The translations under genes were made by a program, and so were the position numbers. The notes beneath the pieces were generated by a model that saw nothing but the letters and a program-made list of their open reading frames with translations, was not told the DNA's origin and searched no databases. From contig CAZUDV010000006.1 in the NCBI GenBank assembly GCA_964619555.1, forward strand, positions 178,394 through 242,393: a stretch of DNA of 64,000 nt, written 5' to 3'. Position 1 is the stretch's first letter. The number at the start of each line of letters is the position of its first letter. Shown here one piece after another: positions 3,960 through 63,020 of this stretch. The DNA comes from an uncultured Bacteroidales bacterium (GTDB taxonomy: Bacteria; Bacteroidota; Bacteroidia; Bacteroidales; JAGOPY01).

Positions 3960-3967
3960 TATCTTTG
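3960..3967 (+). promoter_or_regulatory. -7 box TATCTTTG between nusA and infB (possible internal promoter)
   Basis: Exact TAnnTTTG match, 44 nt upstream of the infB ATG. Confidence 0.35.
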
Positions 3968-6957: not shown

Positions 6958-8246
6958 AACAGAAGCGTTTGCTCCCGGTCCGGTCCGTATGACAGACCCA
7001 GGAAGGGGACACCGGTTTTTTCACCTATAAAATCCAGGTAATTTTTCAATGCCGGAGGCATGGCATCGTAGCCACCTTTCAGGTTCCCCAGAGAGGTACC
7101 CCAACCCTGCAAATCATCGTAAACCGGGTCTGTCGACTGCATCAGGAAGTCATAGGGCACCCTGTCATCCCTTTTATTTCCGGATAAATAACCCGTTGCA
7201 ATCCGGATCGTACCGAAATCGTTCAGCACATCGGTCTTCATCATAAAAAGGCTGGTTACCCCGTTGATCATGACCGAATATTTCAAAGCTACCAGGTCCA
7301 GCCAACCGCAACGTCGTGGTCTTCCTGTTGTCGAGCCGTATTCCCTCCCCTGCTGCCGTAGCTGGTCTCCGGTTTCCCCCTCGAGTTCGGTGGGAAAAGG
7401 ACCACTGCCGACCCTGGTGCAATAAGCTTTGAAAACGCCTATCACTTCACCGATCTGACCGGGATTGACCCCCAGGCCGGTGCAGACACCACCGATCGAT
7501 GTGTTGGAGGAAGTGACAAAAGGGTATGAACCGAAATCCACATCCAGCATAGTGCCCTGGGCCCCTTCCGCCAGCACTTTCTTACCCGATGCCAGCCCTT
7601 CGTGTATAAAGTAATCCGAATCGACCAGGTTGAGGCGGCGCATGAAACCGATCGCGTCAAGCCAGGCTTGTTCGTATTCTACCAGGATCATCCCGTCAAT
7701 CGGGTGTTCCGAATATTCAAATCCATAGAAACGAAGCAATTTCAGATGCTTATCCCTCATATTCCGATAGACGGCTTCGAAATTACTCCTGAGAATATCG
7801 CCTACCCTGAGGCCATTCCGTGCGGTCTTATCGGTGTAAGTGGGTCCTATGCCTTTCAGGGTCGACCCGATCTTAGATGCCCCGAGCGCTTTTTCATGCG
7901 CGGCATCCAGCAGGCGATGGGTCGGGAGGATCAGGTGTGCCCGTTTGGAGACAAAAAGGTTTGAGGTAGTGTCCACACCGTGCGACGCCAGGTTTTCAAT
8001 CTCTTTTCTGAATATGAAAGGATCCAGGATCACGCCATTCCCGACCAGGTTTATTTTTTCGGGATAGAAAATCCCGGAAGGGATCGTGTGAAGGATGAAT
8101 TTCTGATTTTTAAACTCAATCGTGTGGCCGGCATTGGGACCGCCCTGAAAACGTGCAACAATATCATAACGGGGAGTAAGGACATCCACAATTTTCCCCT
8201 TGCCCTCATCTCCCCACTGAAGGCCGAGGATTACATCTACTTTCAT
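6954..8246 (-). CDS. purA: adenylosuccinate synthase
   Basis: 430 aa. N-terminus GLQWGDEGKGKIVD plus GPNAGHT and TTGRPRRCGW motifs. Confidence 0.95.
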   Translation of the reverse strand: MKVDVILGLQWGDEGKGKIVDVLTPRYDIVARFQGGPNAGHTIEFKNQKFILHTIPSGIFYPEKINLVGNGVILDPFIFRKEIENLASHGVDTTSNLFVSKRAHLILPTHRLLDAAHEKALGASKIGSTLKGIGPTYTDKTARNGLRVGDILRSNFEAVYRNMRDKHLKLLRFYGFEYSEHPIDGMILVEYEQAWLDAIGFMRRLNLVDSDYFIHEGLASGKKVLAEGAQGTMLDVDFGSYPFVTSSNTSIGGVCTGLGVNPGQIGEVIGVFKAYCTRVGSGPFPTELEGETGDQLRQQGREYGSTTGRPRRCGWLDLVALKYSVMINGVTSLFMMKTDVLNDFGTIRIATGYLSGNKRDDRVPYDFLMQSTDPVYDDLQGWGTSLGNLKGGYDAMPPALKNYLDFIGEKTGVPFLGLSYGPDREQTLLF

Positions 8247-22975: not shown

Positions 22976-23031
22976 GAAGTTAGAAGTCAGGTGAAAGGAG
23001 TCGGAAGTCGGAAATCGTAAGTCAGACGTCG
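22976..23031. repeat. heptanucleotide tandem array, 8 units, consensus GAAGTCG
   Basis: Units read in order: gaagtta, gaagtca, ggtgaaa, ggagtcg, gaagtcg, gaaatcg, taagtca, gacgtcg. Confidence 0.8.
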
Positions 23032-23050
23032 AAAAAAAGAAATTTTAAGA

Positions 23051-23099
23051 TGCCAACCGTCAACTGCGAACTGCCAACTGCCAACTGCCAACTGTAACA
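23051..23099. repeat. heptanucleotide tandem array, 7 units, consensus TGCCAAC
   Basis: Units read in order: tgccaac, cgtcaac, tgcgaac, tgccaac, tgccaac, tgccaac, tgtaaca. Confidence 0.8.
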
Positions 23100-24783: not shown

Positions 24784-26343
24784 ATGAAACGGATTATCTT
24801 GCAATCTGCATGGCTGATCATGGCTGTTCTCATGATCCTGGTCCTGGACCACAACGTGGCGGCACAAAATGAAATTGTCCGCGAAACCCGGGATCTCCCG
24901 GTATTTGACCAAATTAATGCGGGAGGAGCGTTTGAAATAAAACTGACCCAGGGTACACCCCAGAATGTAGAGGTTGAAGCCAAGCAAAAAGTGATCGGCG
25001 ACATCCAGACCGAAGTTAAGGACGGCAACCTGGTCATCTCTTCCAAAGGCATTAACAACAACACACCTTTGAATATTTTTATCACGGTAGCCGAATTGAA
25101 AAAGCTGGAAATTCATGGGGCGGCTGAATTAGATGGCACGAATACTATTAAATCGGCCGACCTGGAAATAGTTGTTTCCGGCGCTGCAGAAGCAGACCTG
25201 GAGGTGGATGCAGCCAACCTGATCACCGATGTTTCGGGGGCAGCAGAATTGGATCTTTCAGGCAAGACCATCAACCACACGACCAATGTAAGCGGTGCGG
25301 CTTCATTAAATGCCGGCAATCTTAATGTCAAATATACCCAGGCTGATGTCAGCGGCGCGGCATCAGCCCATATCAATACGGAAAATCTGGTCGGAAATAC
25401 CAGCGGCGCCGGGGAAATTTATGATAAGGACAGGATGGTGGAAAAGTCGACGTGGGAAGAATCTCCCGGGGTATACATCGATACGGACAGGGACAGCGAC
25501 ACGACCTATATAAGGATTCCCGGAGCCGCGGTAGTGGTTACGGAAGGTGACGACTCCGTGACAGTGCGTGTTGGGAACAGGGTACTGGTGGTGGATGACG
25601 ACGGGGATGTGGAGTTCAAACGCTGTGCCATGCCCAGGTTCAACGGCCATTGGGCTGGTTTTGACATCGGTTTTAACGGATATGTGAATTCCGATTTCAA
25701 TATGAGTTTCCCGAAGGAGTATGAGTACATGGATTTGAGAATGGAAAAGTCGATTGCGACAAACCTGAATTTTTTCGAACAGAATATCCGTCTTGCCAAA
25801 AATCAGCATTGGGGCATCGTGACCGGGCTGGGGCTGGGCTTCAACGATTACCGGTTCCTGCACCAGACCAGGCTGAGCATGGATTCTTCATCGTTACAGG
25901 GATATATCGATGAAGACATAAGCATCCGGAAAACAAAACTTTCGGCTATGTACCTGAATTTGCCGATCCTGTTTGAATTTCAGACTGCTCCGGCTTATCA
26001 CAAAAACGGTTTCCATATCAATGCCGGGGTGATCATCGGGGCCAGGCTGTCTTCACATACCAAGATCTATTACAATGAGTTGAACAAAGAATTCAATGTG
26101 ACCCGGTACAACCCTGAGACCGGACAATATGAGGTTGCCTTTACGGCGATTTCCCCGGATGATCCCAAATCCAAACATTATGACGACTGGTTCATGCAAC
26201 CATTCAAATTCGATGCCTCGGTAAGGATTGGCTGGAATTTCCTGAATTTCTGGGCGAATTATTCATTGAACACGATGTTCAGGAAGGATAAAGGCCCGGA
26301 ACTTTATCCCTGGTCGGCCGGGATTACACTGGTTTGCTTCTAA
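24784..26343 (+). CDS. DUF2807 (head GIN / putative adhesin beta-helix) protein fused to a C-terminal outer-membrane beta-barrel-like domain
   Basis: 519 aa with a signal peptide. Contains LPVFDQINAGGAFEIKLTQG ... DGNLVISSKG and repeated SGAAExD rungs. The C-terminal half has alternating aromatic strands and ends in F. Confidence 0.7.
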   Translation: MKRIILQSAWLIMAVLMILVLDHNVAAQNEIVRETRDLPVFDQINAGGAFEIKLTQGTPQNVEVEAKQKVIGDIQTEVKDGNLVISSKGINNNTPLNIFITVAELKKLEIHGAAELDGTNTIKSADLEIVVSGAAEADLEVDAANLITDVSGAAELDLSGKTINHTTNVSGAASLNAGNLNVKYTQADVSGAASAHINTENLVGNTSGAGEIYDKDRMVEKSTWEESPGVYIDTDRDSDTTYIRIPGAAVVVTEGDDSVTVRVGNRVLVVDDDGDVEFKRCAMPRFNGHWAGFDIGFNGYVNSDFNMSFPKEYEYMDLRMEKSIATNLNFFEQNIRLAKNQHWGIVTGLGLGFNDYRFLHQTRLSMDSSSLQGYIDEDISIRKTKLSAMYLNLPILFEFQTAPAYHKNGFHINAGVIIGARLSSHTKIYYNELNKEFNVTRYNPETGQYEVAFTAISPDDPKSKHYDDWFMQPFKFDASVRIGWNFLNFWANYSLNTMFRKDKGPELYPWSAGITLVCF

Positions 26344-26395
26344 AGAGTGGTTAGTGTTTAGTGTTTAGTGGTTAGTGGTTAGTGTTTGGTGGTTT
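26344..26395. repeat. left arm of an inverted repeat: AGAGTG plus 7 heptamers (GTGKTTA)
   Basis: Units read in order: gtggtta, gtgttta, gtgttta, gtggtta, gtggtta, gtgtttg, gtggttt. The arm starts 1 nt after the upstream stop codon. Confidence 0.85.
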
Positions 26396-26487
26396 TTGAA
26401 AAAAAATTATTACTTTTACCAGCGAAAAAAAGATTATTGTAATGCGTTATAAAACAATAATTTAACAACAAATTGAACAAAAACAAC

Positions 26488-26534
26488 CCTAACCACTAAC
26501 CACTAACCACTAACCACTAACCACTAAACACTCT
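26488..26534. repeat. right arm of the inverted repeat: heptamers (ACTAACC) plus CACTCT
   Basis: Reads cctaacc, then actaacc x4, then actaaac, then actct. It is the reverse complement of the left arm apart from a few G/T unit variants, and ends 7 nt before the yebC ATG. Confidence 0.85.
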
Positions 26535-26541
26535 TCAGCAT

Positions 26542-27288
26542 ATGTCCGGTCACAATAAATGGTCCACGATCAAGCACAAAAAAGGGGCTGCGGATGCAAA
26601 GCGGTCCAAGATCTTTTCGAAAATCGTCAAAGAAATCCAGGTAGCTGTAAGAGAAGGTGGGGCCGACCCGGACGGCAATCCCAGGTTGCGACTGGCCATA
26701 CAGAATGCCAGGGGGGTCTCCATGCCCAAGGATAATATCGAGCGGGCCATCAAGGGCAGCAAGGATAAGGAAGCCAGTAGCCTCCTGGAGTTGACCTATG
26801 AGGGGTATCTTCCAAATGCAGTGGCTGTTTTTATCGAATGTACCACCGATAACCAGCAGCGAACCGTCAGCGTGATCCGTTCCATCTTCAATAAGTACAA
26901 CGGCAATTTAGGGACGAATGGCTCTCTCAGCTTCCTTTTCGATCGTAAAGGGGTATTTTCGATCCCAAAAGAGAATTACAATGCCGATGAGCACGAACTG
27001 GAACTGATTGATGCGGGGGCGGAGGATATCCAGGAAGAAGACGGTTATATCTCGATCACTACTGCCATGGAGGATTTCGGCAAGATGCAGAAGAAGCTCG
27101 AAGAACTTCAGGTAGTGGCTGAGAATGCAAGCCTGCAGAGAATTCCCAGGGATTATAAGAAGCTGGATCTCGATGATTCAAGAAAGATCATGAAGATGAT
27201 AGAAACGTTTGAGGATGAGGATGACGTGCAAAATGTCTATCACAACCTCGACATTCCGGACGAACTTTATGATGAAATGGAAGACTAA
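26542..27288 (+). CDS. yebC: YebC/PmpR family DNA-binding transcriptional regulator
   Basis: 248 aa. N-terminus MSGHNKWSTIKHKKGAADAKRSKIFSK. Confidence 0.9.
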   Translation: MSGHNKWSTIKHKKGAADAKRSKIFSKIVKEIQVAVREGGADPDGNPRLRLAIQNARGVSMPKDNIERAIKGSKDKEASSLLELTYEGYLPNAVAVFIECTTDNQQRTVSVIRSIFNKYNGNLGTNGSLSFLFDRKGVFSIPKENYNADEHELELIDAGAEDIQEEDGYISITTAMEDFGKMQKKLEELQVVAENASLQRIPRDYKKLDLDDSRKIMKMIETFEDEDDVQNVYHNLDIPDELYDEMED

Positions 27289-28771
27289 CCTATCTTCCTT
27301 TGGGCGAAATTACTCCTTTGCCCTGTTATTATTGGCCTTATTAAGTGCACACCTGCCTTTCCTCTCTGCTGATCCCGATCTCAATATTTCATTCAGCCGT
27401 GGCCCGTTCACCGATGAAGGACTTAATACTGTTCAGGTCCGCAACTGGATCAATCATGGCGAGCTGGACCTGGCTGAGTGTGACAACCTTTTGAAAACAC
27501 CACTTTTCGGGCTTTCTCTGATACTTCCTTATAAAGTTTTCGGCACCAGCCACCTGGTTTCCCGCCTTCATGTTCTGCTGTTGCTGTTGCTGACTCTGTT
27601 TTTGATCGGAAAGGATCCAAAACATAAAATTACCGTCGGAGTACTTATCCTGATCTCCTTCTTTCAATACCAGGTTTTCCATTTCTCTCATTTCAGCCTG
27701 GCTGAAATACTCTCATCAGCAGCCGTGTTGCTTTGCATACATTTTCTGGCCAGGTCTGCCGACATTCAGTACAATGCACGCCTGCGCCGCAACAATGCCA
27801 TCCTTTCAGCTGTATTTTTATCCCTGTCGTATTTTTTCAAGATCCAGTTTATTTACCTGGTTCTTTTGCTTCCAATCGTCCATTTGGGGATTTTGAGCCA
27901 GAAACTGCCTCTCTCCAGGAAATCCTTCATCCGACAGGGATTTTACAGCAGTGCCACATTACTTTTTTTCCTTATGATCTATTTGTTTGGGTGGTATCTC
28001 CCAAACAAGGATCTGTACGACCATATGATGTCCGGTCAATCCGGCGAATTCACAATTTCAAATAAAGTACTCGAATACCTGGAATTTAATCTCTCCAATT
28101 TCATTTTCACCGGATGGTTCCTGGCATTCATCATCCTGTTCATTTTGGCTGCCGGAACTGGTTTTTATCTTCTCAGAAAAAATCCTTCATCCCGATTTCC
28201 CGTTCTCTTTATCGCTTCTTTTGTTTGGTTTCTCCTGGAAACCCATAAGTTACTGATGGTTTACCTGCCCACCCGGTACCGGATCAGCCTGTATATTTCC
28301 GTTGGGCTCCTTATCAGTACGGTAATCGGGGAAATTATAGTCAAGAAAAGAAATCGCAATACCAAAGGCTTCCCGGGGTGGATCCATCCGGTTTCCCTTA
28401 TCGCAGCCGCTATTCTGATCAGCATAAACATCCTGAATTATTCCCGGAGTTTTTACGGCAGATCATTTAACATCCGGGATGCCAACCAATACCTTTCTGC
28501 GACGGTTAAACCGGAGGATGTCGTCCTCGGCTCCTGGGCTCCTTCCCTGACCTGGCAGGCAAAAGCCAAAGCAATTCCGGTTTGGAATAATTTTCTGAAC
28601 TATCAAGATCCCGTTAATAGTTATAAACCCCGGGTAATCATTTCCGAACCCGATGAACAGGATTCCGAACAAGCATACAAAAGCCAGAATATCAGCCTTA
28701 TGCAATTATCCGATTCATCCCGGACGGTCTCAATCGGTCAATGGCAAGTGACTATTTATTGGTTGAATTGA
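27269..28771 (+). CDS. polytopic membrane protein, ArnT/PMT-like GT-C glycosyltransferase candidate
   Basis: About 12 hydrophobic helices. An early loop FTDEGLNTVQVRNW carries an acidic DE pair as in GT-C enzymes. The start at ATG 27269/27272 overlaps the yebC end. The upstream ATG 27209 was rejected. Confidence 0.5.
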   Translation: MMKWKTNLSSFGRNYSFALLLLALLSAHLPFLSADPDLNISFSRGPFTDEGLNTVQVRNWINHGELDLAECDNLLKTPLFGLSLILPYKVFGTSHLVSRLHVLLLLLLTLFLIGKDPKHKITVGVLILISFFQYQVFHFSHFSLAEILSSAAVLLCIHFLARSADIQYNARLRRNNAILSAVFLSLSYFFKIQFIYLVLLLPIVHLGILSQKLPLSRKSFIRQGFYSSATLLFFLMIYLFGWYLPNKDLYDHMMSGQSGEFTISNKVLEYLEFNLSNFIFTGWFLAFIILFILAAGTGFYLLRKNPSSRFPVLFIASFVWFLLETHKLLMVYLPTRYRISLYISVGLLISTVIGEIIVKKRNRNTKGFPGWIHPVSLIAAAILISINILNYSRSFYGRSFNIRDANQYLSATVKPEDVVLGSWAPSLTWQAKAKAIPVWNNFLNYQDPVNSYKPRVIISEPDEQDSEQAYKSQNISLMQLSDSSRTVSIGQWQVTIYWLN

Positions 28772-61132: not shown

Positions 61133-62917
61133 ATGGATAATTTTGTCGTATCAGCCAGGAAATACCGGCCTTCCACATTCGACAGCGTGGTTGGCCAGGA
61201 ATCGATCACATCAACCTTAAAAAATGCCATCCGGAACAAACAACTGGCACAGGCTTTCCTTTTTTGCGGCCCCAGGGGTGTCGGAAAAACCACGTGTGCC
61301 CGGATCCTGGCGAAGACCATTAACTGCTTCAATCCGGTCAACCAGGTCGAGGCCTGCAATACCTGCGAGTCTTGCCTGTCATTCAACCGGTCGGCTTCTT
61401 TCAATATCCATGAACTCGATGCCGCCTCAAATAATTCGGTGGAAGATATCCGCAACCTGGTGGAACAGGTCCGGATCCCGCCTCAGGTTGGCAGGTACAA
61501 GGTCTATATCATCGATGAGGTCCATATGCTATCAGCAGCGGCGTTTAACGCCTTCCTGAAAACTCTGGAAGAGCCTCCCGATTATGCCAAATTCATCCTG
61601 GCCACAACTGAAAAGCATAAAATTATCCCAACCATTCTTTCCCGGTGCCAGATATTTGATTTCCGCAGGATAGTCGTTAAGGACATTGCTGACCACCTGG
61701 CTTATGTTGCTAAGAATGAAGGAGTAACGGTTGAGGAGGAAGCCCTTCATGTCATAGCACAGAAGGCAGATGGCGCTATGCGGGATGCGCTTTCCTTTTT
61801 TGACCAGCTGGTTAGTTTTGCCGGAGACAACCTGACCTATGCCATGGTCACGGAACATCTCAACATTCTGGACCATACTTATTATTTCCGGATCATGGAC
61901 CAGGTGCTCAACCAGGATACGACAGGTATTTTGTTGACCATCAACGAGATTATTGACAGGGGTTTCGACGGGCAGCATTTCCTGATCGGTTTCGGAGAAC
62001 ATCTGAGGAGCCTTTTGGTCAGTAAAGATCCGGCAACGGTCAAACTGATGGAAGTGAGCCAGAACCTGCAGGAAAAATACCTGCAACAGGCTGCCCGCTG
62101 CTCCCCGGCCCTCCTGCTCAAAGCCCTGGAGATCCATAACCAGCACGACCAGGGCTATCGCACGAGTAACAACAAACGTCTGCAACTGGAGTTATGTCTG
62201 CTTCAGATCTGCACAGCCGCTGCCGTTACCCAACCTCTGGCAGAAGAAAAAAAAAACTCTCTGATTCCGCCTGAAGGCGGTCAGCAGTCGGCGGTCGGCG
62301 GTCGGCAGTCGGCGGTCGGCGGTCAGCAGTCGGCGGTCGGCGGTCAGCAGTCGGCGGTCGGCAGTCGGCAGTCGGCGGTCGGCGGTCAGCAGTCGGAGTC
62401 TGGTAGTTTTCCAACTGTCAAAAAGACGCAGAATGAAGTATCAGCGTCAACTCCCGGGACTTCCAGAACCATTTCGATCAAATTGGAAAATCATCGCCCC
62501 AGACAGTCAAATGGAAATGCTGAACCTGATAATCCCACGATTGTTCTGCAAAAGGAATTTACCCAGGAAAAACTGGATAAAGTATGGACCTATTACACGG
62601 AAAGCATTGCTGGTCAATATCCCAATTTTTACAGTATTTTATCCACCCGGAAACCAGTTTTGAAAGACAATTTCGTGATCGAACTGCTATTGGATAACCG
62701 GGCACAGGAGATGACTTTACGTGATAGAAAAAGCGATCTTATCGAGTTCCTTCGAAGTGAACTGCAAAATCAAAAAATCATACTGGATTCGATCCTCGTG
62801 GAGAGCGATTCACCATCAAAACCTTACACTCCCGAGGAAAAATTCAAAGCCATGGCCGAAAAGAATCCCTCTCTTAATTCCCTTAAGGATAAACTGGACC
62901 TGGAACTGGAGCTATAG
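61133..62917 (+). CDS. dnaX: DNA polymerase III subunit tau (and possibly gamma)
   Basis: Start moved to ATG 61133, giving MDNFVVSARKYRPSTFDSVVGQ. Contains GPRGVGKTT (P-loop), the zinc module CNTCESC, IIDEVHML and SRCQIF. The C-terminal half is low-complexity. Confidence 0.9.
   Translation: MDNFVVSARKYRPSTFDSVVGQESITSTLKNAIRNKQLAQAFLFCGPRGVGKTTCARILAKTINCFNPVNQVEACNTCESCLSFNRSASFNIHELDAASNNSVEDIRNLVEQVRIPPQVGRYKVYIIDEVHMLSAAAFNAFLKTLEEPPDYAKFILATTEKHKIIPTILSRCQIFDFRRIVVKDIADHLAYVAKNEGVTVEEEALHVIAQKADGAMRDALSFFDQLVSFAGDNLTYAMVTEHLNILDHTYYFRIMDQVLNQDTTGILLTINEIIDRGFDGQHFLIGFGEHLRSLLVSKDPATVKLMEVSQNLQEKYLQQAARCSPALLLKALEIHNQHDQGYRTSNNKRLQLELCLLQICTAAAVTQPLAEEKKNSLIPPEGGQQSAVGGRQSAVGGQQSAVGGQQSAVGSRQSAVGGQQSESGSFPTVKKTQNEVSASTPGTSRTISIKLENHRPRQSNGNAEPDNPTIVLQKEFTQEKLDKVWTYYTESIAGQYPNFYSILSTRKPVLKDNFVIELLLDNRAQEMTLRDRKSDLIEFLRSELQNQKIILDSILVESDSPSKPYTPEEKFKAMAEKNPSLNSLKDKLDLELEL
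62247..62256 (+). other. A10 homopolymer in dnaX: candidate transcriptional-slippage or frameshift site
   Basis: The sequence gaa gaA AAA AAA AAc lies at about codon 372-375 of 594. The -1 frame stops at 62272-62274 and the +1 frame at 62262-62264. Confidence 0.3.
62277..62402. repeat. in-frame heptanucleotide array, 18 units, consensus GCRGTCR, inside dnaX
   Basis: gcggtca, gcagtcg, gcggtcg ... for 126 bp (42 codons). It encodes six 7-aa units (GGQQSAV / GGRQSAV). Confidence 0.85.
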
Positions 62918-62953
62918 CCCGGATTGGAACAGTTAAATCCTTTCAACTGTTAA

Positions 62954-63014
62954 CCTGAAAACTCAACTTTGAATCCTAAAACTCAACTTTGAACCTTGAA
63001 CTTTGAATTTTGAA
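62954..63014. repeat. imperfect direct repeats ending in YYTTGAA heptamers
   Basis: cctgaaaactcaactttgaa, then cctaaaactcaactttgaa, then ccttgaa, ctttgaa, ttttgaa. Located between convergent dnaX and the methyltransferase gene. Confidence 0.6.
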
Positions 63015-63020
63015 CTGACT

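Follow-up and report, generated by a model that had tools for sequence, protein, structure and literature searches.

A convergent pair of complementary heptamer arrays around an AT-rich core between an outer-membrane protein gene and yebC in an uncultured Bacteroidales bacterium

The intergenic region upstream of yebC in an uncultured Bacteroidales bacterium contains a 191-bp element in which two heptanucleotide arrays face each other across an AT-rich core. The element lies at 26344–26534 of a 64,000-nucleotide stretch of contig CAZUDV010000006.1 (GenBank assembly GCA_964619555.1), hereafter the window, whose numbering is used throughout. We are confident that it is a convergent inverted pair of heptanucleotide simple sequence repeat (SSR) arrays of the type known as short tandemly repeated repetitive (STRR) sequences or long simple sequence repeats (LSSR), placed between an outer-membrane protein (OMP) gene and yebC. 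The arrays probably grew where they stand by slipped-strand duplication and not by mobile insertion, with the unit turning over between lineages while the arms stay complementary; this lasting complementarity might reflect either selection for a hairpin or hairpin-templated (quasi-palindrome) correction. Among the long simple repeats of many bacterial genomes, those of heptamers are the most frequent, and the question of what they do has stood since 1990. The locus offers a natural series of lineages in which the unit was replaced several times while position, polarity and arm complementarity were kept, so that what is constrained (geometry, composition, pairing) is separated from what is not (sequence). 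That the sequence is free while the geometry is kept argues against sequence-specific protein binding and against a mobile-element origin, and the locus provides a clean comparative series on whether the pairing of the arms matters.

A repeat search and direct alignment delimited an inverted repeat with 58-nt arms (Table 1), complementary at 49 of 58 positions (84%) and separated by a spacer of 83 nt; the GC content of 26396–26487 is 20.7%, compared with 46.6% for the whole window. Tandem Repeats Finder described both arms as 7.0 copies of a period of 7, with the consensus AGTGGTT and 88% matches on the left (26346–26394) and the consensus AACCACT and 95% matches on the right (26485–26532). 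The layout is (GTGGTTA)7, 83 nt and (TAACCAC)7, with the G-rich arm first. The first 50 nt of the left arm are devoid of C, and the right arm has five perfect units, 2% G and no ATG, GTG or TTG. The left arm starts at 26344, the base directly after the TAA stop of the upstream gene (0-nt gap), and the stop itself (26341–26343) falls within the extended inverted repeat. The last recognisable unit of the right arm (CACTCT) ends at 26534, 7 nt before the yebC ATG at 26542. The upstream gene has the left arm as its 3′ trailer, and the right arm supplies the last ~50 nt of the yebC leader. The inner ends of the arms are also complementary (GGTGGTTTTTG / CAAAAACAACC). These results bear out a preliminary description of the element, made from the letters alone, as inverted heptamer arms around an AT-rich core that adjoin both genes and lack a target-site duplication; the flanks, ...TTGCTT and CATATG..., carry none. 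The same description had taken the AGAGTG and CACTCT ends as non-repeat sequence, and in this it needs correction, as they are degenerate copies of the heptamer unit (AGAGTGG vs TTAGTGG).

The element is far more stable in folding calculations than shuffled sequence. As RNA it folded at −73.1 kcal/mol on the plus strand and −80.4 kcal/mol on the minus strand (both z about −9.9, with 0 of 200 shuffles equal), and as DNA at −48.6 kcal/mol (z −10.1, with no shuffle as stable). The predicted stem is ~45 bp, and the folding check as a whole gave ~45–48 bp, in agreement with the stem of about 48 bp proposed earlier. A pattern of two consecutive units occurs 10 times, all within the element, compared with 0.23 expected, and the element is the only long inverted repeat in the window. 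The arrays are confirmed independently by Logan short-read assemblies of two other samples, in which the outer parts of both arms are identical and the contigs break inside the arrays. In these assemblies contig ends fall exactly inside heptamer arrays (L002 1–40; L003 1–40; L005 1–30 and 3280–3311), the broken arrays being both yebC arms and the TGCCAAC array listed in Table 1; heptamer arrays thus break short-read assemblies at predictable places beside gene ends. Long spacers strongly disfavour cruciform extrusion, and with a spacer of 83 nt we judged extrusion in duplex DNA unlikely.

We compared the same locus in metagenome-assembled genomes (MAGs) labelled Bacteroidales whose YebC homologues are 79–92% identical. 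The gene order is kept: extracytoplasmic function (ECF) sigma factor, putative anti-sigma factor, DUF2807-OMP gene, intergenic region and yebC. The intergenic regions are 152–389 nt long and have the same layout with different units, amounting to 4 or 5 unit types in arrays of 3 to ~20 units. The unit pair is AGGTTTA/TAAACCT, that is (AGGTTTA)n ... (CTTAAAC)n, in L126/127/128, L129 and L219; GTTCTGA-GTTTTGA/TCAAAAC-TCAGAAC, in 3 to ~20 units of (GTTCTGA/GTTTTGA)n ... (ACTCAAA/ACTCAGA)n, in L212, L213 and L216; and GTGTTAA/TTAACAC, that is (GTGTTAA)n ... (ACTTAAC)n, in L217/218. In L130/131/214/215 the arrays, (GGTTCCA)n ... (AAAACTC)n, are not complementary. The left array starts at the stop codon or a few nt from it, and the right array ends 3–12 nt ahead of the ATG, in every array-bearing relative. 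Left units often continue the last codons and the stop of the gene, as in ...GTTTCTGA GTTCTGA GTTCTGA. Even in the nearest relative, L219 (YebC 92% identical), the unit already differs from that of the window, and more distant relatives (YebC ≤72%), among the matches listed, are mostly without arrays at this position. The last 50 nt before the yebC ATG contain 2–14% G and no ATG, GTG or TTG in 9 of 9 lineages. The preliminary description had tied the interest of the element to conservation or copies elsewhere; the layout is indeed kept in the orthologous region of relatives, and pairs built of the same unit occur in many other genomes.

The non-complementary arrays of L130 relate to those of another lineage. 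The left unit of L130 complements the inner part of the L213 right arm (duplex −43.6 kcal/mol) and its right unit the L213 left arm, a pattern that looks like differential loss from composite arms. Two relatives also carry additional strong hairpins between the left arm and the core: L212 has a compact, terminator-like hairpin at 1790–1850 (GGGCACGAAGAAAGG...CTTCTTCGTGCCC, then TTTG), and L130 has a long inverted repeat at 2700–2810 (CGACGACTAAAGCCGTCGGTTCC / GGAACCAACGGCTTTAGTCGTTGG). Both are consistent with upstream transcripts ending before the core.

For the comparison of arms across eight lineages, we took 50 nt from the stop codon and 50 nt before the ATG, and used mononucleotide shuffles in comparing the folds. 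Paired arrays are present in 7 of the 8 lineages, and the cognate arms are clearly complementary in 6. The cognate duplexes averaged −33.1 kcal/mol, compared with −22.0 kcal/mol for non-cognate combinations; the cognate pair ranked first or second in 6/8 lineages, and random re-pairing equalled the observed total in 0.5% of permutations (p=0.005). The stem of the window is the strongest of the eight (−59.6), and in 7/8 the minimum-energy fold of the whole region brings the first and the last 60 nt into pairing. We regard the co-variation of the arms at the yebC locus as suggestive rather than conclusive, because at most ~4 independent unit types underlie the result.

The unit of the window is also found far outside this lineage. 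A scan for (CTAACCA)3 with one genome per species returned at least 120 stretches; the matches listed, to which the counts in this paragraph refer, span more than 10 phyla by record title, including Cyanobacteria, Chloroflexota, Planctomycetota, Acidobacteriota, Bacteroidota (among them Saprospiraceae and Haliscomenobacter), Bacillota, Pseudomonadota and Victivallales. Where (GGTTAGT)n and (ACTAACC)n arrays on opposite strands neighbour each other at ≤400 nt, the G-rich arm comes first in 31 cases and the C-rich arm in 0 (binomial 9e-10). The spacers of these pairs have a median length of 75 nt and show no relationship from one genome to the next. Among 121 arrays, the median distance to an open reading frame (ORF) boundary is 18 nt on the 3′ side of the C-rich strand (66 within 20 nt) and 125 nt on the opposite, inner side (13 within 20 nt); 49 follow stops as G-rich trailers and 26 precede starts as C-rich leaders. 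At the level of RNA the rule is that trailers are G/U-rich and leaders C/A-rich, and both sides of the window element conform to it. Mirror arrays of other heptamers are nested within several pairs (L055, L016, L014, L089 and L101). In the Tolypothrix carrinoi MAG (L055), the nested mirrors at 69–309 read (GTGGATA)(GGGGCAT)n ... (ATGCCCA)n(ACTAACC)n, and at 7347–7648 three tandem copies of a ~77-nt unit (CAACCCTTCGGGTTCGTCAGATGCTTCAAGTCGGGAAACCCGCCCAACGCACTGACTCACCATCAACTA) lie between the arms.

Convergent inverted heptamer pairs beside ORF ends are already in the literature. Rehm et al. 2015 (PMC4692102) described 70–75 convergent inverted pairs of GGGAATC per Xanthomonas genome, with arrays ≤50 bp from ORF ends and the G-rich strand after stops and the C-rich strand before starts; the pair type is kept between species, most arrays are transcribed, and their function was left unexplained. 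The element described here resembles these pairs in having one heptamer on opposite strands, the G-rich arm first, in an intergenic position between mostly co-directional ORFs, ≤50 bp from ORF ends, and the Xanthomonas pairs likewise keep their type at orthologous positions while their length varies. It differs in that the unit is replaced between lineages, in both arms together, and in its Bacteroidales-like host. The G-quadruplex proposal of that study is inapplicable here because the arm units, GTGGTTA or GTGTTTA, contain GG at most and no GGG tract. In the literature we found no published description of unit replacement with co-variation of the arms at one orthologous locus, nor of a strict cross-phylum polarity for a unit that is unable to form G-quadruplexes. 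A full-text search with the literal repeat sequence returned only unrelated eukaryotic primer and sequence matches.

Other heptamer systems share part of this arrangement. STRR/LSSR repeats of period 7 (Mazel 1990 and Mrazek 2007, as cited in PMC4679880 and PMC4692102) are likewise over-represented, mostly intergenic and of several different units per genome; as that class is presented in these citations, it comprises direct repeats only, whereas here two arrays form a long inverted repeat around a conserved core. In Beggiatoaceae, Cyanobacteria and five Bacteroidetes, MacGregor 2015 (PMC4679880) found TAACTGA arrays whose ends fall a few nt short of start codons, and suggested that they act in translation. 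The right arm behaves like these arrays: the ‘forward’ array ends near a start codon, the unit holds stop triplets and ribosome-binding sites are lacking. The unit here, however, is TAACCAC, and its array has a complementary partner at the stop codon upstream, whereas in that study one unit dominates each genome and a single inverted case was noted. An effect on expression of heptamer arrays beside Nostoc start codons was reported by Pradhan et al. 2022 (bioRxiv 10.1101/2022.06.06.494920).

A conserved block at the left edge of the AT-rich core (Table 1) holds the motif TACTTTTA at 26411–26418, 123 nt upstream of the yebC ATG, which resembles the −7 box of Bacteroidetes promoters. The matching block in L126, L129, L212 and L219 is TTTCAAAAAAAATATTATCTTTAC; L213, L130 and L217 have TAnnTTTAC at the block, and L216 has TATTTTTG. 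The shared block was assigned by eye, and a MAFFT alignment mis-registered that of the window. A scan of the region for sigma-70-type promoters found none; because the sigma-70 consensus is inappropriate for Bacteroidetes, we tested TAnnTTTG, the −7 element of this group (PMC6847099), instead. Intergenic DNA makes up 8.6% of the window and holds 13 of the 40 copies of this element, each of the 13 directed towards a start codon ≤200 nt away, mostly at 6–60 nt. This enrichment and orientation indicate that the organism uses TAnnTTTG-type promoters, and the spacing of the boxes implies short leaders and fits a Bacteroidota origin. The boxes often read TATCTTTG, with examples at 3960, 16072, 20310, 22963 and 54435. 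The motif in the core is a likely candidate for an internal yebC promoter, a proposal that we hold with slightly more doubt than belief.

Of the functional readings, an intercistronic insulator or a structure in the yebC 5′ untranslated region (5′-UTR) would seem the most plausible. We put forward the following working mechanism of internal promoter, read-through stem and insulation tentatively and with considerable doubt about the chain as a whole. The orthologous AT-rich centre would hold yebC's own promoter, and mRNA starting there would carry the right arm only, as a G-poor, start-codon-free and unstructured C/A-rich leader extending to 7 nt before the ATG. Such a leader would suit initiation in Bacteroidetes, which is independent of Shine-Dalgarno sequences and favoured by unstructured leaders (PMC6847099). 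The left arm would form a G/U-rich trailer of the upstream gene, and both arms would occur together only in read-through transcripts from the upstream sigma/anti-sigma/OMP genes. The read-through RNA is predicted to fold into a ~45-bp stem, which would sequester the yebC leader to within 7 nt of the ATG and present a long double-stranded substrate for RNase III. A functional precedent is the 5′-UTR hairpin of Haemophilus influenzae hmw1A, one arm of which is a heptamer SSR and which RNase III cuts (PMC12721329). In this way the arm pair might insulate yebC from upstream transcription and stabilise or define the 3′ end of the upstream mRNA. The more general explanation that we favour, a slippage pair grown in situ whose G-poor leader and G/U-rich trailer would pair in read-through RNA, is in our judgement evenly poised between right and wrong.

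Several points weigh against this explanation. Promoter, read-through, hairpin formation and cleavage are all read from sequence. The candidate yebC box ends in A, at a position where G is nearly invariant in Flavobacterium (PMC6847099), and its distance of 123 nt from the ATG contrasts with the mostly 6–60 nt of the other boxes in the window. The co-variation argument draws on no more than about four independent unit types, and the arms are poorly complementary in two lineages (L130/L214 and L212). In addition, the duplex energy is better on the plus strand in 3 lineages and on the minus strand in 5; as there is no consistent sense-strand advantage, selection on the sense RNA is not singled out over strand-symmetric pairing at the DNA level. 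Finally, the other arrays in the window form no stable hairpin (z +0.9 and −0.6), and arrays of this kind thus do not generally require pairing.

These other arrays show that heptamer repeats are a genome-wide habit of the organism. No tandem period is commoner in the window than 7, which has 5 arrays compared with 0–2 for each of periods 4–12; 4 of the 5 are intergenic and 1 lies in the dnaX coding region. Four further period-7 arrays accompany the yebC element (Table 1). The AGTCGGA and TGCCAAC arrays are arranged with the G-rich one first and the C-rich one second, and their units are 5/7 complementary; the region that holds them (22999–23094) folds no better than shuffles (z +0.9). The AACTTTG array ends 5 nt from the stop of a minus-strand gene and has no stable fold (z −0.6). 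Because these arrays have unrelated units and no stable fold, the yebC element is the sole true complementary pair in the window. The array in dnaX, read in frame, gives ~6 copies of QQSAVGG in a linker and has apparently expanded as multiples of three units. A TATCTTTG −7 box stands between the left, AGTCGGA array and the start of the glycosyltransferase family 2 (GT2) gene.

Table 1. Coordinates of the yebC element, its flanking genes and the other heptamer arrays of the window
Feature	Position	Strand	Remarks
Left arm	26340–26397	+	G/T-rich heptamer array AGAGTG(GTTAGTG/TTTAGTG)n...GGTGGTTTTT, 7 copies
AT-rich spacer	26398–26480		20% GC; orthologous to the middle part of the relatives' intergenic region
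Right arm	26481–26538	+	C/A-rich heptamer array AAACAACC(CTAACCA)n CTAAACACTCTTCAG, 7 copies
Conserved block TTTGAAAAAAAATTATTACTTTTACC	26396–26421	+	Holds the −7-box-like motif TACTTTTA
DUF2807 (adhesin-head GIN domain) + OMP beta-barrel gene, 519 aa	24784–26343	+	ORF list, Pfam
yebC (YebC/TACO1 family), 248 aa	26542–27288	+	ORF list, Pfam, homologues
(AGTCGGA)n	22999–23031		Divergent intergenic region, GT2 glycosyltransferase (−) / ECF sigma factor (+)
(TGCCAAC)n	23051–23094		Same GT2/ECF sigma intergenic region, 19 nt from (AGTCGGA)n
17-unit GGCGGTC/AGCAGTC array	62276–62396		Inside the dnaX (tau/gamma-like) coding region, 21-nt super-period
(AACTTTG)n / 20-nt period	62943–63016		Between convergent dnaX and S-adenosylmethionine (SAM)-methyltransferase-like genes

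The pair might have no role of its own. As a neutral by-product, which we consider possible but doubtful, slippage-prone repeats would fill the space up to the ORF boundaries, the complementarity would descend from an ancestral inverted duplication kept by hairpin-templated (quasi-palindrome) correction, and each arm would be under negative constraints only, such as the absence of start codons and a low G content ahead of the ATG. The lack of conservation of the unit sequence between close lineages and the scarcity of arrays in more distant relatives among the matches listed fit this account, as do the unpaired and unfolded state of the other arrays in the window, the spread of an array even into the dnaX coding region as in-frame 21-nt repeats, and the strand symmetry of the complementarity. 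The right arm, with five perfect units, is also more perfect than the more degenerate left arm, which suggests recent independent slippage. However, the layout and the complementary units outlast at least 4 unit replacements at one locus, and the 31:0 orientation and the abutment of ORF ends across phyla (again among the matches listed) imply constraints beyond mutation, although these constraints could act on each arm separately.

At the opposite extreme, complementary heptamer pairs might be a widespread form of operon punctuation that depends on structure and not on sequence, with a G/U-rich array at one stop codon, its C/A-rich complement at the following start codon, and pairing selected while the unit changes. 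In read-through transcripts such pairs would act as long double-stranded RNA, either an RNase III site or an insulator; in promoter-proximal ones they would provide an unstructured leader. We think this generalisation unlikely; if it were true, the 31:0 polarity across more than 10 phyla among the matches listed and the co-variation of units at the yebC locus would mark a regulatory class that evolved convergently and has gone unrecognised, and would not be mutational noise.

Heptamer SSRs next to an adhesin-like gene and in a likely yebC leader also bring to mind a phase-variable switch, in which slippage would alter leader length or hairpin strength and so tune yebC or the upstream adhesin-like OMP. 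A precedent exists in H. influenzae hmw1A, where experiments showed that (ATCTTTC)n forms one arm of a long 5′-UTR hairpin cleaved by RNase III, and that both expression and changes in repeat number require this hairpin (Rapun-Araiz et al. 2025, PMC12721329). Both systems lie in an adhesin-related neighbourhood and have a heptamer SSR that contributes an arm to a long RNA hairpin ahead of a gene (here in silico only); in hmw1A structure counts rather than sequence, as it would here. In hmw1A, however, only one arm is an SSR and the hairpin lies wholly in the 5′-UTR downstream of the promoter, whereas here both arms are SSRs and the probable promoter would lie in the loop. The range of array length between lineages, from 3 to ~20 units, agrees with a switch; the identity of the outer units in three independent samples does not, and imperfect arrays (88% and 95% matches) lower slippage rates. 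In addition, yebC is of housekeeping type and not an obvious target of phase variation. We consider a switch improbable.

The position of the element directly at the stop codon and the great stability of its stem would also suit a terminator or bidirectional barrier, in which the long hairpin itself ends transcription of the upstream gene. A scan of 25800–27000 for intrinsic terminators (compact GC stem and T-run) found none, so that no other terminator is present in the intergenic region, and the heptamer repeats of Xanthomonas coincide with transcript starts or stops more frequently than control repeats do (PMC4692102). The stem is followed by CACTCTTCAGCATATG / CACTCTTCAGCAT and not by a T/U run, however, and the loop of 83–92 nt is long. 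The trivial rho-independent terminator that the preliminary description had kept in view is thus not supported. Furthermore, the separate hairpins of L212 and L130 between the left arm and the core indicate that termination there does not need the arm pair, and a halt of transcription at the distal end of the stem would leave the yebC leader region outside the logic of an internal promoter. We therefore regard this role as very improbable.

A mobile element resembling a miniature inverted-repeat transposable element (MITE) or a REPIN (repetitive extragenic palindromic (REP) sequences arranged as a hairpin), or an array of sites to which a sequence-specific protein binds, accounts least well for the data. 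The element does have formal terminal inverted repeats (58 nt, though made of tandem heptamers), an AT-rich core and a size near 200 bp, and it shares with MITEs and REP/REPIN sequences a short intergenic inverted repeat with hairpin potential, such as is often found right after stop codons. Unlike them, it has no target-site duplication and no dispersed identical copies in the available sequence: the arm pattern and a core 30-mer (≤3 mismatches) occur nowhere else in the 64 kb. Its core is not foreign to the site but orthologous intergenic DNA, present in relatives with different arms, and the arms are simple repeats whose unit varies by locus. With regard to REP/REPIN sequences, which are dispersed palindromic units, the unit occurs at a single locus in the window; no search aimed at their associated transposase, RAYT, was made. 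Neither a sequence-specific transposase nor a regulator of that kind is likely, because the units are unrelated between the arrays of this genome and are replaced at the orthologous locus. The MITE-like element envisaged in the preliminary description is accordingly set aside, and we consider this class of explanation highly improbable. One Planctomycetaceae MAG, Pcl387_bin71, speaks for it elsewhere, as several of its (GGTTAGT)n pairs share the inner motif GGTTAGTTCGCATGCGGA.

In that MAG, many (GGTTAGT)n...(ACTAACC)n pairs have the inner palindromic motif GGTTAGTTCGCATGCGGA ... TCCGCATGCGAACTAACC in common (L008 4912–5090 and 6075–6174; L083 2500–2912 and 7307–7404; L091 5792–6067). They look like a dispersed repeat family specific to that genome and are possibly mobile.

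Searches for a known RNA or a coding function within the element were negative. Rfam gave no match in the element at the gathering threshold, the sole pass in the window being a tRNA-Gln elsewhere; at E≤1 it returned only models of plant miRNA precursors, with 20–44 bits compared with thresholds of 80–195, which is a generic response to any long hairpin. The ORFs in the spacer are of 20–35 aa only and of low complexity, and none is credible.

The upstream protein matches the Pfam families PF10988 (3e-35) and PF13568 (2e-9), and the start of YebC, MSGHNKWS, is kept among its homologues. An ORF of ~500 aa at 27209–28771 overlaps the end of yebC (in the source annotation, a gene at 27269–28771; L001 10728–12230); it has no Pfam match. 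This ORF is absent from L130/L131, L214/L215 and L216, and is kept 3′ of yebC in most of the close relatives examined.

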